64,000 nt of DNA from a virus (lineage: Duplodnaviria > Heunggongvirae > Uroviricota > Caudoviricetes). This document shows, in pieces, positions 6,512 through 19,686 of this stretch. Location: the IMG/VR virus record IMGVR_UViG_3300045988_004821; one strand, 5' to 3'. Below the pieces are notes generated by a model. The model was not told the origin of the DNA. It saw only the letters and a list, made by a program, of their open reading frames with translations, and did not search any database. The translations under genes were made by a program, and so were the position numbers. Every line of letters begins with the position of its first letter. The stretch's first letter is position 1.

Positions 6512-14527
<8,016 letters not shown>

Positions 14528-14529
14528 TA

Positions 14530-15702
14530 ATGGCAGTAGGTGAAATTCAAATTAGTGCCTTGCCTCAAGCATCCTTACCAATTGACCTTAGTGATATCTT
14601 CCATCTTAAGCAGGGTATTGAGGATAAGAGGTGTACTCTTGAGCAATTACTTGCTCCACACGCAAGCCTAAGAAATAACCCTCATGGTGTTACTAAAACA
14701 CAAATTGGTTTAGATAATGTTATTAATGCTCTTCAGTTAGTCGCTGCAAATAACTTATCAGATATTGTTAATGTAGCTGAGGCAAGAGCAAATCTACAGA
14801 TTATGTCTTCAGAAGAGGTTAATAACCTTGTCCAGCAACATATCAAGGACAAGAGTAACCCACACAATACAACTAAGGCACAGGTTGGTTTAAGTAATGT
14901 TCAGAACTGGACAACATCTAATCTGTATAACGAAGATGCAGATAAGTATGCTACAGCAAGAGCAGTAAATAACTTGTACAAGGCTGTTCAGGCTTCTTAT
15001 CCAGTAGGTACTATCCATCTTTCTATGAACTCTGCAAACCCTTCCACATACTTAATTTGTGGAGGTACTTGGGAGTTAGTTTCAAAAGGCAGGGCATTGG
15101 TTGGCTATGACTCTGATACAAGACCAGCAGGTTCTGTATTTGGCGCTTCAACTGTCACTTTGTCAGTTAATAACATGCCTCAGCACTCCCACTCTGTGTC
15201 TCTTAGCGGTGGTGGTCACACTCATAATGCAACTGTGTCAATTTCAGCTTTTGATTATGGGACTAAGACTACAAACTCTTTTGACTATGGGACAAAAGCT
15301 ACTAACACAACTGGTAACCATACACACAGTGTGTCAGGTAACACTAGCACCAATGGTACTCACAACCATGATGTGTATCCTAGAGAAAATGATGGCACTG
15401 GTAATGCTGTGGCTGACTCTGATGGTGGTGGTGCAAGAAGGACATCAAGGACTTCTAGTGATGGTGCGCACTCACACAGCTTTAACGTCACATCTGGTGC
15501 ATCAGGTGACCACAGCCACACGGTTGGTATTGGTGCTCACAGTCATACAGTTGGTATTGGTTCACATACGCATAGTGGCACTGTAACAGTTTCTTCTTCT
15601 GAACATACACATAGTGGCAATACAAATAGTGTTGGTGGAGGTCAGGCAGTTAATATTGAACAGCCATCCTTCGTACTGTATGTATGGCAGAGAACAGCTT
15701 AA
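14530..15702 (+). CDS. tail fiber protein with His-X-His repeat tip
   Basis: C-terminal third has repeated HTHS/HSHS/HSHTVGIG motifs; C-terminus ...YVWQRTA paralogous to next gene. Confidence 0.6.
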   Translation: MAVGEIQISALPQASLPIDLSDIFHLKQGIEDKRCTLEQLLAPHASLRNNPHGVTKTQIGLDNVINALQLVAANNLSDIVNVAEARANLQIMSSEEVNNLVQQHIKDKSNPHNTTKAQVGLSNVQNWTTSNLYNEDADKYATARAVNNLYKAVQASYPVGTIHLSMNSANPSTYLICGGTWELVSKGRALVGYDSDTRPAGSVFGASTVTLSVNNMPQHSHSVSLSGGGHTHNATVSISAFDYGTKTTNSFDYGTKATNTTGNHTHSVSGNTSTNGTHNHDVYPRENDGTGNAVADSDGGGARRTSRTSSDGAHSHSFNVTSGASGDHSHTVGIGAHSHTVGIGSHTHSGTVTVSSSEHTHSGNTNSVGGGQAVNIEQPSFVLYVWQRTA

Positions 15703-15711
15703 TTTCTTTAC

Positions 15712-15732
15712 AGGGGCTTTATAGCCCCTTTT
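15712..15732 (+). terminator. hairpin between the two tail fiber genes (weak terminator)
   Basis: AGGGGCT-TTAT-AGCCCCT followed by TTT; preceded by TTTACAGGGG also seen in cassette B. Confidence 0.35.
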
Positions 15733-15748
15733 AAGAGGAAAATTTATA

Positions 15749-18103
15749 ATGGCAGATTACAAATTGAGTGAGCTAAACTCAATCGACACAATCCGTTCAG
15801 ATGACCTTCTTCATGTCAGAGTTAAAAAGAGACCTGAAATGCTGGGTGATGAAGACCGTCGAATGACCTATCAAGATTTCTTAGCATCTTTTAAGCTTGA
15901 AAGATTTGTTCAGATTGCTGGTAGCACTATGACGGGTGACTTAGGAATTGTTAAGCTACTTTACGGTGGCAAGGCTGTATTCGACCCCACAGGCTCTTCT
16001 GAGATTACTGTTGGTGATGTTTTAAAGACTTTTAAAATCAACGCAAACGGCCTTAAACTAACTATTGCAGACGCTTCAAGGTCGGCAACTGTTTATCATA
16101 CTTTGAATAAGCCAAGCCCTAATGAACTTGGGATGAGAACTAATGAAGAGAATGACGCAAGGTATGCAAGACTAGCCGTGAATAATACCTTTAGAGGTAC
16201 TCAAGCTATCCTCTCTGACAATGAAGCGCTCATTATTAAAAATATCACTCAAGGTGCTCCACTCTATCTTCGTGGTCAAGATGCAGATGGTACTAACAGA
16301 TGGTATCTAGGTAATGATAATAGGGGTACAAATAATCTTGTATTGAAGAATGTAAAGTCTGACGTTTCAATTGCTATTTTAGAGAATTTGGTGACAGTCA
16401 ACAGAACTCTTCAAATTGCTGGCCAAGTTCAGCCTTCAAGTTTTGCTAACTTAGATGCTAGGTATTTTACCCAGACAGCAGCTAATCAGAGATTTGCGCA
16501 GTTAGCTGGTAATAACACTTTTACTGGTACTAACACTTTCTCTAATTTTGTTGCTAAGAAGAATGCTGAAGCCATCACTCTGCAAAATGTGGACACTGCT
16601 CCCTCTTTATATATCCGAGCAAGAAAGTCAGATGGGAATTATAAGTGGTACATTGGTAATGACGGTGATGAGAACATTTTAAAAATCTATAACTATCTAA
16701 CAAAAACACAAGTCTCACTAGGTAACACTATTGCCATGAGCAAAACAGTTCAAATTGATGGTCAAGTACAACCTTCTGATTGGACTAACATTGATTCTAG
16801 ATATATTCCGGCAGCCAATTTGAGTAATCTCCCTAAACTTAATGTGTCTAATACTTTTACAAATGTGCAAACTATTGTATCTAACAACGAGGGTTTGGTA
16901 TTAAGGAACTTGACACAGGGGCAGCCACTATATATCCGTGGTGTTGATACTGAGAATGTTTCTAGATGGTGGTTAGGTGTAGGTGGTCCAAACTCTAATG
17001 TGGTAACACTTAACAACACCTATTCTGACACTAAAATCTCACTTGGTGGCTCATCAGTAATGACTAATAAGAGCTTAGCTATTACTGGTCAAGTACAACC
17101 TTCTGACTTCTCTAACTTAGATGCTAGATACTATACCCAAGCTGCCGCAAACGCAAGATATATGCTTGCAAGCATCACTGGTTCGGCTTCTGAAGCAGAT
17201 GGTGGTGATGGTGTTGCATGGGATGCAAAAACAGGTCTTTATAAGGTTACTAACACCACTGGACAGTCTTCTTCACTTGTATATAACATGTTTTTAGGGA
17301 CTAGTTCTACACCATCTGCACAATTAAAGTTTTCGTTTAAAAATGGTGGGATGTGGTATAGAACATCAAGAGATGCCTATGGCTTCGAAGTTAATTGGTC
17401 TAAAGTTTACACGGAAGCACAAAAACCAACCCCTTCAGAGATTGGTGCATACACTAAAGCTGAAACTGACCAGAAAATTGCAACAGCAATTAGTGACTCT
17501 ACAGACCTTAACAAAATCTATCCAGTTGGTATTGTAACGTGGTTTAACAGTAATGTTAACCCTAATACAGCACTCCCTGGTCTAACTTGGACGTACCTGA
17601 ATAATGGTGTTGGTAGAACTATCAGAATCGCAGCAGCAAACGGTTCAGATGTTGCTACAACTGGTGGTTCAGATTCTGTGACATTAGCTGTTGGTAACTT
17701 ACCATCACACACTCACAGTTTCTCTGCTACCACTTCATCTTTTGATTATGGTACGAAGAACACTAACAGTACTGGTGCACATACCCATTCAGTTAGTGGT
17801 ACTGCTGCATCTGCTGGGCAACACGCACACAGAATTTCACAGGGTGACAACGCTAACGTTTCATCAGGTAGAGTCGCATCTTCAAACTCTGCTCAGACCC
17901 ATGTTGGTTGGACTGAAAATGATGGTGTTCACACCCACTCAGTTAGTGGTACTGCTGCATCTGCTGGTGGACATGCTCACTCTGTAGGTATTGGTGCTCA
18001 TAGCCACACAGTTAGTGGTAACACTGGTGGTACAGGTTCTGGTTCAGCATTTAGTGTTACTAACCAGTTCTACAAGTTAATGGCTTGGGTAAGAACTGCT
18101 TAA
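15749..18103 (+). CDS. large tail fiber protein with internal repeats and His-X-His tip
   Basis: 784 aa; three approx 100-aa repeats containing GQVQPSDF/W; C-terminal HTHS/HAHS repeats ending ...MAWVRTA. Confidence 0.65.
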   Translation: MADYKLSELNSIDTIRSDDLLHVRVKKRPEMLGDEDRRMTYQDFLASFKLERFVQIAGSTMTGDLGIVKLLYGGKAVFDPTGSSEITVGDVLKTFKINANGLKLTIADASRSATVYHTLNKPSPNELGMRTNEENDARYARLAVNNTFRGTQAILSDNEALIIKNITQGAPLYLRGQDADGTNRWYLGNDNRGTNNLVLKNVKSDVSIAILENLVTVNRTLQIAGQVQPSSFANLDARYFTQTAANQRFAQLAGNNTFTGTNTFSNFVAKKNAEAITLQNVDTAPSLYIRARKSDGNYKWYIGNDGDENILKIYNYLTKTQVSLGNTIAMSKTVQIDGQVQPSDWTNIDSRYIPAANLSNLPKLNVSNTFTNVQTIVSNNEGLVLRNLTQGQPLYIRGVDTENVSRWWLGVGGPNSNVVTLNNTYSDTKISLGGSSVMTNKSLAITGQVQPSDFSNLDARYYTQAAANARYMLASITGSASEADGGDGVAWDAKTGLYKVTNTTGQSSSLVYNMFLGTSSTPSAQLKFSFKNGGMWYRTSRDAYGFEVNWSKVYTEAQKPTPSEIGAYTKAETDQKIATAISDSTDLNKIYPVGIVTWFNSNVNPNTALPGLTWTYLNNGVGRTIRIAAANGSDVATTGGSDSVTLAVGNLPSHTHSFSATTSSFDYGTKNTNSTGAHTHSVSGTAASAGQHAHRISQGDNANVSSGRVASSNSAQTHVGWTENDGVHTHSVSGTAASAGGHAHSVGIGAHSHTVSGNTGGTGSGSAFSVTNQFYKLMAWVRTA

Positions 18104-18182
18104 TCCCTTGTTGACTGATTGTTAAGATGGTGTTAATATTCTTTATGGGTATTCTCACCATCTTGGCTGATGAGGTGATTAA

Positions 18183-18380
18183 ATGCCTACAATCCTAGCA
18201 ATTCTTCTAAAAAATCTAGGTAGCTTCTTCTGGAAACTCATTTTATCCCTTCTAAGTGAATACATGATTGAGAAAGTGTTCTTTAAGCTTGCAAGATATC
18301 TTGCGAGTAAGACAGACACACCTATTGATGATGAGTTCGTAGATAACTTAGAAAAAGCTTTTAAGGGGGAGAATAAATGA
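18183..18380 (+). CDS. hypothetical small protein
   Basis: 65-aa ORF after tail fiber gene. Confidence 0.3.
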   Translation: MPTILAILLKNLGSFFWKLILSLLSEYMIEKVFFKLARYLASKTDTPIDDEFVDNLEKAFKGENK

Positions 18381-18748
18381 AGTGGCTAGAGGAAGCTTTT
18401 AAAAATAATATTGGTGCAATTGTAGTTGGTATTTTTAGTGTTATTGGGATGTATACCACCATGCAAGTTTCGGATGGTAAGCAAGAAGTGTCTGTCACAA
18501 CAAAGTTACAGCAGCTAGATAATTACAGCAAAGCTAATTACTCAGCTATTCGTGATTTACAGTCTGACATGAGACTGATTCAGCTAGGGATGGAGAACCA
18601 GAAAGTTCAGTTAGAGAATGTTAAGGGCGAGAACGCAAAACTTACTAAAACCCTTGATAAATTCTCTGACAGCGTGAACAATCTGGCTCAATCAGTATCA
18701 GCCTTGCAAGCTATTACTGAAAAGAACACAAAGAATACTGAAAAATAA
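18377..18748 (+). CDS. hypothetical membrane-anchored coiled-coil protein
   Basis: N-terminal hydrophobic helix (IGAIVVGIFSVIGMY), then coiled-coil-like region; followed by strong terminator. Confidence 0.35.
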   Translation: MKWLEEAFKNNIGAIVVGIFSVIGMYTTMQVSDGKQEVSVTTKLQQLDNYSKANYSAIRDLQSDMRLIQLGMENQKVQLENVKGENAKLTKTLDKFSDSVNNLAQSVSALQAITEKNTKNTEK

Positions 18749-18753
18749 AATTT

Positions 18754-18786
18754 AAGGCTCCTTTTTTACGGGAGCCTTTTTTGTTT
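18754..18786. terminator. bidirectional terminator between converging + and - gene blocks
   Basis: AAGGCTCC / GGAGCCTT stem with T-rich loop, T-run on + strand and A/T run on - strand. Confidence 0.6.
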
Positions 18787-19686
18787 TTACTTGCCTACTG
18801 ACAGAGGTGCTTCAATCTTTCCTGCATGTTGGTAGTTGTTAATGCCACCAATAAAATCACTTGCAGTAAGATGTTTCAGGTCACTTAAAGTATTAAGTGG
18901 TAGACCAATCTCAAAAGTTGGTGCATGGAACTCTTCATTGTTCAGTAGTTCATAAACCTGTTTCATGTGGTTCTGATAAATCTGAGTATCTCCAAAGACA
19001 CCTATCAAGTACCGTGGAGTGTATCCAGTCATCTTACAAAGAACTTCCAGAATAAAACCATAAGATGCAATATTAAACGGGAGTCCTAAAAAGGTGTCTA
19101 CTGAACGCTGATACCATTGTAAGTCAACTTCACCCTCGTTAGTGATATAAATCTGAAACAGAACATGACAAGGTGCTAAAGCCATTGAGTTTGCTGCAAT
19201 ATCTGCTGCATTCCAAGCATTAACAAGCATGTAACGGTCTGTGATATCACCCTTCATCTTCGTTACTAAGGTCTCTAGTTGGTCTACAACACAACCATTA
19301 TGACCTTCAAAGTTTCTCCACTGAACCCCATAAATCCTTCCACCTGCATCATCTAACCAATCTTGTTCAGAAGAATAATTAGAGCTTAACCAGCGTTTAA
19401 AATCATCTGACCAGATAGTCCAGCGTTCTCCGTCATTTTCACCCCAAGTACGGTAACGAAGTTCGCCCAACTTATTCTCGCCATTCAGGAACCATAAAGC
19501 CTCCCCAATAACTTGCCGTGTAAACACCTGTTTAGATGTTAAGAGTGGGAAACCAGTTCGCATATCAAAGCGAAACTTAGGTGGAGCAAATGCAGAGATA
19601 ACATCTCCAGTTCGTGTAGTACGCAGTTCACCAACTGATAAAACATGGTTCAGGATATTTTTGTAACTTGTATCTGCTTGTGACAT
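18787..19686 (-). CDS. thyA: thymidylate synthase
   Basis: Motifs as in ThyA: catalytic-site ALAPCH, QWYQRSVDTFLGLPFNIASY; SD AGGA upstream. Confidence 0.85.
   Translation of the reverse strand: MSQADTSYKNILNHVLSVGELRTTRTGDVISAFAPPKFRFDMRTGFPLLTSKQVFTRQVIGEALWFLNGENKLGELRYRTWGENDGERWTIWSDDFKRWLSSNYSSEQDWLDDAGGRIYGVQWRNFEGHNGCVVDQLETLVTKMKGDITDRYMLVNAWNAADIAANSMALAPCHVLFQIYITNEGEVDLQWYQRSVDTFLGLPFNIASYGFILEVLCKMTGYTPRYLIGVFGDTQIYQNHMKQVYELLNNEEFHAPTFEIGLPLNTLSDLKHLTASDFIGGINNYQHAGKIEAPLSVGK

Follow-up and report, generated by a model that had tools for sequence, protein, structure and literature searches.

The two fiber genes and their parts

The stretch analysed here, 64,000 nucleotides (nt) of a virus of the Caudoviricetes (IMG/VR record IMGVR_UViG_3300045988_004821; hereafter the window), carries two adjacent tail fiber genes on the + strand: a short fiber (STF) of 390 amino acids (aa), encoded by the open reading frame (ORF) 14530-15702, and a long fiber (LTF) of 784 aa, encoded by the ORF 15749-18103. 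The segment under study, 14530 to 18103, runs from the STF start codon to the LTF stop codon. A model that read the letters alone (the original prediction) had proposed that the two fibers share a tip domain of His-X-His (HxH) motifs of the T4 type, and that this reflects duplication and divergence of a receptor-binding tip.

A megablast search with positions 14200-18200 returned 241 phage records, almost all of which bear the name of an Escherichia, Salmonella, Citrobacter or Shigella phage or of Felixounavirus. By DNA identity, ULIM8 and ULIM3 (98.8%) and VpaE1_ev108 (98.5%) come first, and in these both ORFs carry a tail fiber annotation. PHROG tail fiber families match STF with E 4.6e-138 and LTF with an E reported as 0 (1326.8 bits), and phrog_2097 and phrog_4277 match the fiber pair, with full-length orthology of both proteins. 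By homology, the window genes are the STF/LTF pair of a Felixounavirus, i.e., a Felix O1-like E. coli myovirus, with STF assigned as the ortholog of VpaE1 gp74 and Bas63 gp26 and LTF as that of VpaE1 gp75 and Bas63 gp27; the corresponding pair of Felix O1 is gp76/gp77. The parts of the two fibers are as follows.

14530..14964, + strand: STF putative N-terminal baseplate-binding part and helix-turn shaft, aa 1-145; nearly invariant among relatives, with PHROG tail-fiber matches
14965..15174, + strand: STF collar domain, about aa 146-215; Pfam Gp10_C at 64.2 bits (cut-off 27), aa 154-263
15175..15369, + strand: STF descending needle strand, aa 216-280; HxH at 219, 230, 264 and 278; two FDYGTK repeats
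15370..15468, + strand: STF head segment, aa 281-313; hypervariable (the most variable stretch of STF across relatives), predicted receptor-contacting turn; aligns with T4 gp37 932-965
15469..15702, + strand: STF ascending needle strand and C-terminus, aa 314-390; HxH at 314, 328, 337, 346 and 359; ends YVWQRTA
15749..16183, + strand: LTF putative N-terminal baseplate/platform-binding part, aa 1-145; conserved among relatives
16184..17188, + strand: LTF shaft of three ~110-aa repeats (aa 146-258, 259-371 and 372-480); Pfam gp37_trimer; DNA repeat family D2
17189..17503, + strand: LTF gp37_C-type domain, about aa 481-585; Pfam PF12604, E 1.4e-19
17504..17698, + strand: LTF collar domain, about aa 586-650; Pfam Gp10_C at 25.9 bits, just below the 27-bit cut-off
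17699..17830, + strand: LTF descending needle strand, aa 651-694; HxH at 654, 678 and 692; one FDYGTK repeat; 2XGF match
17831..17929, + strand: LTF head segment, aa 695-727; hypervariable, predicted receptor-contacting turn; conservation 0.26, the lowest in the protein
17930..18103, + strand: LTF ascending needle strand and C-terminus, aa 728-784; HxH at 728, 742 and 751; ends MAWVRTA

The first 145 residues of STF would bind the baseplate by analogy with Bas63 gp26, and their shaft portion holds two NPHxxTKxQxGLxNV motifs. The collar that follows aligns with the start of the T4 gp37 fragment 785-1026 (PDB 2XGF) and with the C-terminal domain of T4 gp10. The LTF N-terminus probably binds the platform or baseplate as Bas63 gp27 does; its column identity to relatives, taken per 40-residue block, is 0.78-0.94 over aa 1-160 and 0.89-0.94 up to aa 120. 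The LTF collar, which aligns with those of STF and T4, is likewise conserved among relatives (0.91-0.94). A Pfam Phage_fiber (PF03335) repeat lies at LTF aa 724-736.

The three internal repeats with GQVQPS that had been noticed in the larger fiber are indeed present, at LTF 225, 338 and 447. They mark the ends of ~110-aa shaft units with pairwise protein identities of 36-48%, each terminating in GQVQPS(S/D)(F/W)xN(L/I)D(A/S)RY. The units are also visible as three copies at the DNA level, spaced by 339 and 327 nt, and as three stretches of Pfam gp37_trimer (PF20744, E 9.5e-60); the shaft as a whole varies among relatives. A degenerate N-terminal unit is 12-22% identical to the shaft repeats, and the gp37_C domain matches residues 330-430 of the phage Mu tail fiber S (PDB 8JU3) with E 4e-20. 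Five beta-helix repeat domains have been counted in the Bas63 LTF (PMC12609058), and by sequence this number appears compatible with the three clear repeats, the degenerate N-terminal unit and the gp37_C domain.

The gp37-type tip on both fibers

As had been claimed, both fibers carry clustered HxH motifs; there are nine in STF and six in LTF. These numbers exceed those of 5000 composition-preserving shuffles, which gave means of 1.4 (STF) and 0.27 (LTF) and maxima of 6 and 3. All of the quoted motifs were recovered: HTHSVSG at STF 264 and at LTF 678 and 728, GAHSHTVGIG at STF 335, and HAHSVGIGAHSHTV at LTF 742. Aligned with each other by BLASTP, the two C-terminal domains are 38% identical over about 190 residues (STF 157-341 and LTF 591-755; E 7e-28). 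The similar C-termini, YVWQRTA at STF 384 and MAWVRTA at LTF 778, belong to this tip homology through their common WxRTA, which is conserved in all orthologues examined and to which IVRLA at the C-terminus of T4 gp37 corresponds.

In a phmmer search against the PDB, the T4 gp37 tip (residues 785-1026, 2XGF) matched STF 146-362 with E 3.3e-29 and LTF 648-763 with E 4.2e-14. A three-way alignment places the T4 HxH motifs 883, 915, 929, 966, 980, 989 and 998 against STF 219, 264, 278, 314, 328, 337 and 346, with the STF motifs at 230 and 359 being extra relative to the T4 needle. The LTF motifs 654, 678 and 692 on one side of the head and 728, 742 and 751 on the other align with six of the seven T4 motifs, while T4 998 falls in a gap. 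Relative to LTF, the descending strand of STF has one additional HxH and an insert of 21 residues, and its ascending strand has two additional HxH and an insert of 20 residues. The motif number is not fixed across relatives (9 or 7 in STF, 6 or 4 in LTF, and 5-9 among family members). Among 50 STF homologues, His 230/232 and 346/348 are invariant and 219, 278/280 and 314/316 are at least 90% conserved, and the residues next to the needle histidines vary while the histidines stay.

According to PMC12609058, the di-histidine motifs of T4 coordinate iron along the needle, and the chain doubles back at the head to give a six-stranded barrel. Both Bas63 fibers were found by cryo-electron microscopy to be trimers with a collar, an HxH needle and a head (PMC12609058). 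The 2XGF matches, together with HxH motifs in register with the T4 iron ligands, support the earlier reading of a T4-type metal-binding needle, the metal binding itself following from homology. Judged by these alignments, both STF and LTF end in a T4 gp37-type receptor-binding tip.

By homology, each fiber would form a homotrimer held on the baseplate by the conserved N-terminus, and its tip would comprise a collar domain, a six-stranded beta needle and a small head. Each chain would run down the needle and back up, with the head forming the turn between the two HxH blocks, and each HxH motif, taken from three chains, would give six histidines holding one axial metal ion (iron in T4). The motif count predicts nine axial metal sites in STF and six in LTF, versus seven in T4 and in the Bas63 STF; because the motif numbers differ (9 in STF, 6 in LTF, 7 in T4), needles of different lengths are predicted. 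The shaft of LTF would be built from three repeats of the P2 H/Mu S type plus the gp37_C domain. The variable head between HxH blocks and the alignment pattern, both of them patterns in the sequence only, fit a hairpin topology in which the C-terminus returns to the collar, as has been published for Bas63 (PMC12609058); the single-chain model described below was too poor to show it.

Head variation, fiber roles and the origin of the tips

Variation among relatives is concentrated in the ~33 residues between the HxH blocks, whereas the N-termini and collars are nearly invariant; in LTF, conservation is 0.26 in the head versus about 0.9 in the collar. Host-range mutations of T4 gp37 lie at 938-955, on the head domain (PMC5221442), and the T4 segment 932-965, which spans these sites, aligns with the head segments of the window. 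The term "receptor-binding tip" used by the original prediction holds for both fibers insofar as each has a gp37-type tip, but the part that touches the receptor is most likely the hypervariable head (STF aa 281-313, LTF aa 695-727), not the HxH array or the C-terminus. The receptor reported for the genus is lipopolysaccharide (LPS; PMC8594841, PMC4690856). Since the STF and LTF heads are unrelated in sequence, two different binding specificities are probable in this phage. The heads are likely host-range determinants of a genus that serves in Salmonella diagnostics and is under consideration for the biocontrol of E. coli and Salmonella, and their exact boundaries show engineers which ~33 residues to swap.

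A comparison across relatives with different hosts, which had been proposed as a check, indicates that head types follow host genus. When the Felix O1 head peptide was searched by tblastn in the phage collection, this head type was found in 85 records at 143 places, and 79 of the 85 are named Salmonella phages. It also occurs in T4-like (GRNsp7, Lv5cm) and P2-like (STYP1, SEN4/5, RE2010) Salmonella phages, so that a module of ~33 aa is common to unrelated phage families infecting one host genus. The head type of the window STF was found only in 26 E. coli felixounaviruses. That of the window LTF was found in nine felixounaviruses and in the 52-kb E. coli myoviruses ST32, EcoM1 and TH53 (73-77% identity) and, more distantly, in the T4-like gp37 of E. 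coli and Shigella phages (51-57% identity). By this sequence comparison STF and LTF heads assort independently, in that VpaE1 has a window-like STF, differing at 12 of 390 residues, whereas its LTF differs strongly, at 287 of 784. VpaE1_ev108, VpaE1_ev035 and the window all carry an STF as in the original VpaE1 and an LTF very different from VpaE1 gp75 with its T4-like head; the VpaE1 name does not predict long-fiber specificity.

Heads may also move between the two fibers of one genome. In Felix O1 (FO1a), the head-coding stretches STF nt 862-945 and LTF nt 2095-2178 match at all but one of 84 positions, and they lie inside a 271-nt STF/LTF match of 82% identity. In Mushroom, a 195-nt match of 85% was found and both fibers carry one head type, and neither BPSELC-1 nor the window has such an STF/LTF head match. 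In Felix O1, gene conversion between STF and LTF seems to have given both fibers one head. The 143 places in 85 records imply that many Salmonella phages carry the Felix O1 head twice, which was seen directly in FO1a and Mushroom. We found no description of head copying between the two fibers in the literature cited here. Tentatively, the conserved HxH-coding repeats that flank the heads might serve as recombination handles, letting heads copy between the fibers of one genome and between unrelated phages. If so, the window phage would represent the two-different-heads state of a system able to switch between one and two specificities, and its nine-site needle and lack of a gp38-type chaperone would count as additional departures from the T4 pattern.

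The two tips need not be alternative adhesins. STF could act like T4 gp12, staying folded until LTF binds reversibly and then binding the LPS core irreversibly and triggering contraction, in which case the tips would be used one after the other. Cryo-electron microscopy of Bas63 found both fibers stowed along the sheath, the short one on wedge protein 2 and the long one on a gp9-like platform, and the variable LTF occupancy suggests mobile long fibers. In addition, one STF head type occurs in E. coli felixounaviruses with different LTF heads, e.g., VpaE1, and a conserved core-binding role for STF with a variable primary role for LTF fits because the STF head is common while the LTF heads differ. 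But the STF tip is gp37-like, with nine HxH motifs, against a single zinc site in T4 gp12. Homology of STF to T4 gp12 was rejected, since no gp12 chain was among the PDB matches at E <= 1 and STF is gp37-type. Moreover, sequence does not decide the order of binding, and by the account of the BASEL paper the role of short fibers in Felix O1 relatives is unexplored (PMC8594841). On balance a gp12-like role is conceivable, with the odds somewhat on the other side.

As regards origin, the data do not support "duplication and divergence" in the sense of a recent local event. In the three-way alignment the tips are equidistant (STF-LTF 41.0%, STF-T4 41.3% and LTF-T4 40.9% identity). The LTF tip is nearer to the enterobacterial prophage fibers P0100, P0095 and P0105 (47-49%, 187 bits) than to its own STF (35%, 136 bits), and more than 15 proteins other than STF orthologues, T4 gp37 included, outrank LTF as matches to the STF tip. 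Across seven genomes, STF tips are 58-79% and LTF tips 54-82% identical among themselves, whereas STF and LTF within a genome share ~35%. A neighbour-joining tree of 36 tips recovered an LTF clade (98%) and an STF clade (93%), and an exclusive STF+LTF clade in 0 of 100 bootstraps. At the DNA level, the two genes of the window resemble each other only in stretches of 34-50 nt within the HxH-coding repeats. We therefore rejected a recent local duplication of the tip on the grounds of equidistance to T4, these short DNA similarities, the tree and the BLAST ranks. It appears from these data that the tips belong to one widely shared module family in which each has closer relatives than the other tip. 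The preferred explanation is that enterobacterial phages exchanged modules, or else that the duplication is very old; drawing modules from a shared pool would account for the data at least as well as an ancient duplication.

One ancestral tip could also have been duplicated in place within the lineage, with the copies diverging toward different receptors. STF and LTF are adjacent on the same strand with a common collar-needle-head layout and WxRTA end, the N-terminal baseplate-binding domains of the Bas63 fibers are structurally alike without sequence similarity (PMC12609058), and the Felix O1 head-coding match indicates that the two genes can exchange sequence. Nevertheless we consider this origin unlikely, in view of the tip distances, the closer prophage fibers, the tree and the short DNA similarities given above. 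The Erwinia ounavirus Panisse also speaks against it, as its STF has a gp37-type tip and its downstream fibers are without HxH. It is very improbable that the HxH clusters represent low-complexity Gly/Ser/Thr/His repeats lacking a metal role, with a purely compositional C-terminal resemblance: the region is rich in these four residues with short tandem DNA repeats, and monomer structure prediction is not confident there, but full-length in-register alignments to a solved iron-binding needle (E down to 3e-29), histidines (nearly) invariant in 50 homologues amid varying neighbours, and the shuffle test all argue against it.

Several points weigh against the reading of the two fibers as trimeric metal needles of gp37 type. 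The trimer state and the metal binding would follow from homology and from published work on relatives, and the density of the Bas63 fibers was too weak to resolve side chains, so that metals were not seen there either (PMC12609058). An AlphaFold2 single-chain model of STF from a 50-sequence alignment reached a predicted local distance difference test (pLDDT) of 63 and a predicted template modelling score (pTM) of 0.25, a monomer being unable to reproduce an intertwined trimer, and a Foldseek search of this model against the PDB gave nothing at E <= 0.001, with the T4 gp10 C-terminal domain at the top (E 0.21); the model thus speaks neither for nor against the needle. The tip tree is a neighbour-joining tree on 201 columns of repeat-rich sequence, and its deep branching is uncertain. 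The receptor of VpaE1, the truncated LPS core of E. coli B, is not transferable to the window LTF, since head and shaft differ (the 287 residues counted above). Finally, T4 gp38 was not found by tblastn in the whole 64-kb window (best E 0.22), a search that did not include gp57A-like helpers or lambda Tfa, while T4/lambda-type tips are reported to travel with a chaperone of the gp38/Tfa type (PMC9659904). An adjacent chaperone of this type is an accessory trait of the tip family, not a structural one. Taking together the identity of the fibers, trimeric metal-needle tips of gp37 type, variable heads, and an origin by module exchange or very old duplication, we put the probability of this reading at roughly 0.88.

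Neighbouring genes and known systems

Four further features surround or separate the fiber genes.

14225..14527, + strand: 100-aa platform protein; phrog_4141 without assigned function; 98.0% identical to bas63_0025 (gp25)
15713..15732, + strand: GC-rich hairpin with T-run, GGGGCTttataGCCCCTTTT, read directly from the sequence; lies between the STF stop and LTF
18183-18380, + strand: small ORF of 65 aa, directly after the LTF gene
18377-18748, + strand: small ORF of 123 aa, overlapping the former

Upstream of the fibers lie genes for a Baseplate_J protein (489 aa), a 287-aa baseplate protein and the 100-aa protein, whose Bas63 counterpart gp25 is a trimeric platform carrying the long fiber (PMC12609058). 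Downstream of LTF the two small ORFs are followed by convergent genes for thymidylate synthase and dihydrofolate reductase (DHFR). The order of wedge 2, wedge 1, 100-aa platform, STF, LTF, two small ORFs and convergent thymidylate synthase is that of Felixounavirus, and gene order and sizes are alike in FO1a (Felix O1), wV8, Sf13, C600M2, KhF1, VpaE1 and Bas63. The genes are tightly packed over 13362-14527, where GTG 13362 and ATG 14225 each overlap the preceding stop, and the STF start lies 3 nt past the end of the platform gene; the overlapping or abutting starts and stops suggest translational coupling. The 287-aa ORF is annotated as 285 aa in relatives, and its true start may be two codons downstream.

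The hairpin at 15713-15732 is followed by TTTT, a ribosome-binding site and the LTF ATG, and in wV8 a Rho-independent terminator is annotated at the matching position. It may attenuate read-through into the LTF gene. A scan of 14000-19000 for promoter and terminator consensus gave results not above shuffled expectation and missed this hairpin. A second strong hairpin with a T-run (9 bp, five of them GC pairs) lies at 18754-18778, the point of convergence between the structural genes on the + strand and the genes for thymidylate synthase and DHFR on the - strand; the GC skew changes sign there.

The 65- and 123-aa ORFs match only PHROGs without assigned function and are 98% identical to Bas63 gp28 and gp29. 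They have hydrophobic N-termini, the second with a weak sub-threshold coiled-coil match (Pfam DivIC), and Sf13 annotates the counterpart of the 123-aa ORF as holin. The two ORFs occupy the place of the fiber chaperone in T4 or lambda, and nothing links them to that role. No assembly gene of Tfa/U type was recognised directly downstream of the fibers, although lambda Tfa and Mu U themselves were not among the queries, and the T4 gp36 connector was not found in the window (best E 4.5). No tRNA gene was found by ARAGORN in the whole 64-kb window. Felix O1-like genomes have about 22 tRNA genes (PMC3185647), and since none lies in the window, the cluster must lie in the ~24 kb of genome outside it.

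This picture has been published for close relatives. The C-termini of Felix O1 gp76 and gp77 were both found to resemble T4 gp37 in the 2010 genome paper (PMC3185647), and those of VpaE1 gp74 and gp75 were found in 2015 to resemble the T4 gp37 adhesin, the two proteins being proposed as adhesins (PMC4690856). In 2025, the Bas63 paper described both fibers with their T4-like tips, gave the HxH counts, and reported how tips and shaft repeats vary within the genus (PMC12609058). The tip architecture read for both fibers is correct but already published for close relatives. What the present comparison of sequences adds is that a gp38-type chaperone appears to be absent from the window, that the fibers of Felix O1 and of Mushroom share a head by sequence, and that the STF of the window exceeds both T4 and the Bas63 STF by two HxH motifs.

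Among known systems, Bas63 (Escherichia phage JohannRWettstein; Sci Adv 2025, PMC12609058) is a direct counterpart, with the orthologous gp26/gp27 and a matching gene order. Its identity to the window is 97.1% for wedge 2, 95.8% for wedge 1 and 98.0% for the platform, 79.6% for STF and 68.4% for LTF. As in the window, both Bas63 fibers have a collar, an HxH needle and a head, and LTF has six HxH in both phages. In contrast, the heads differ, the Bas63 STF has seven HxH versus nine in the window (the extra ones at 264 and 278, in the descending strand), and the Bas63 LTF has HHxH at 692-695 where the window LTF has HAH at 692-694. VpaE1 (vB_EcoM-VpaE1, gp74/gp75) belongs to the same genus as the window. 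Its few STF differences were counted above, and those of its LTF fall in the shaft repeats and the head, which is T4-like in VpaE1 but not in the window.

The T4 gp37 tip (2XGF) has the same succession of collar, descending HxH strand, head, ascending HxH strand and a C-terminus returning to the collar, and its FDYGTK and HSVGIGAH(S/T)HTV blocks are nearly identical to those of the window fibers. However, tip identity is only ~41%, the heads are unrelated, and T4 has seven HxH against nine and six. T4 has the gp38 chaperone, whereas in the window no gp38-type gene was found by tblastn beside the fibers or elsewhere in the 64 kb. The tip is also carried differently, on a one-gene fiber in the window and on the last protein of a four-protein long fiber in T4. 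A third group consists of P2 gpH/Mu S-type and enterobacterial prophage fibers, to which the LTF shaft repeats and gp37_C domain are related by their matches to PF20744, PF12604 and Mu S (8JU3). The prophage fiber P0100 of Klebsiella pneumoniae is among the closest to the LTF tip (47-49%), and such fibers end in LMGWYRTA. Unlike the P2/Mu type, the window fibers have an N-terminus and a baseplate attachment specific to Ounavirinae.

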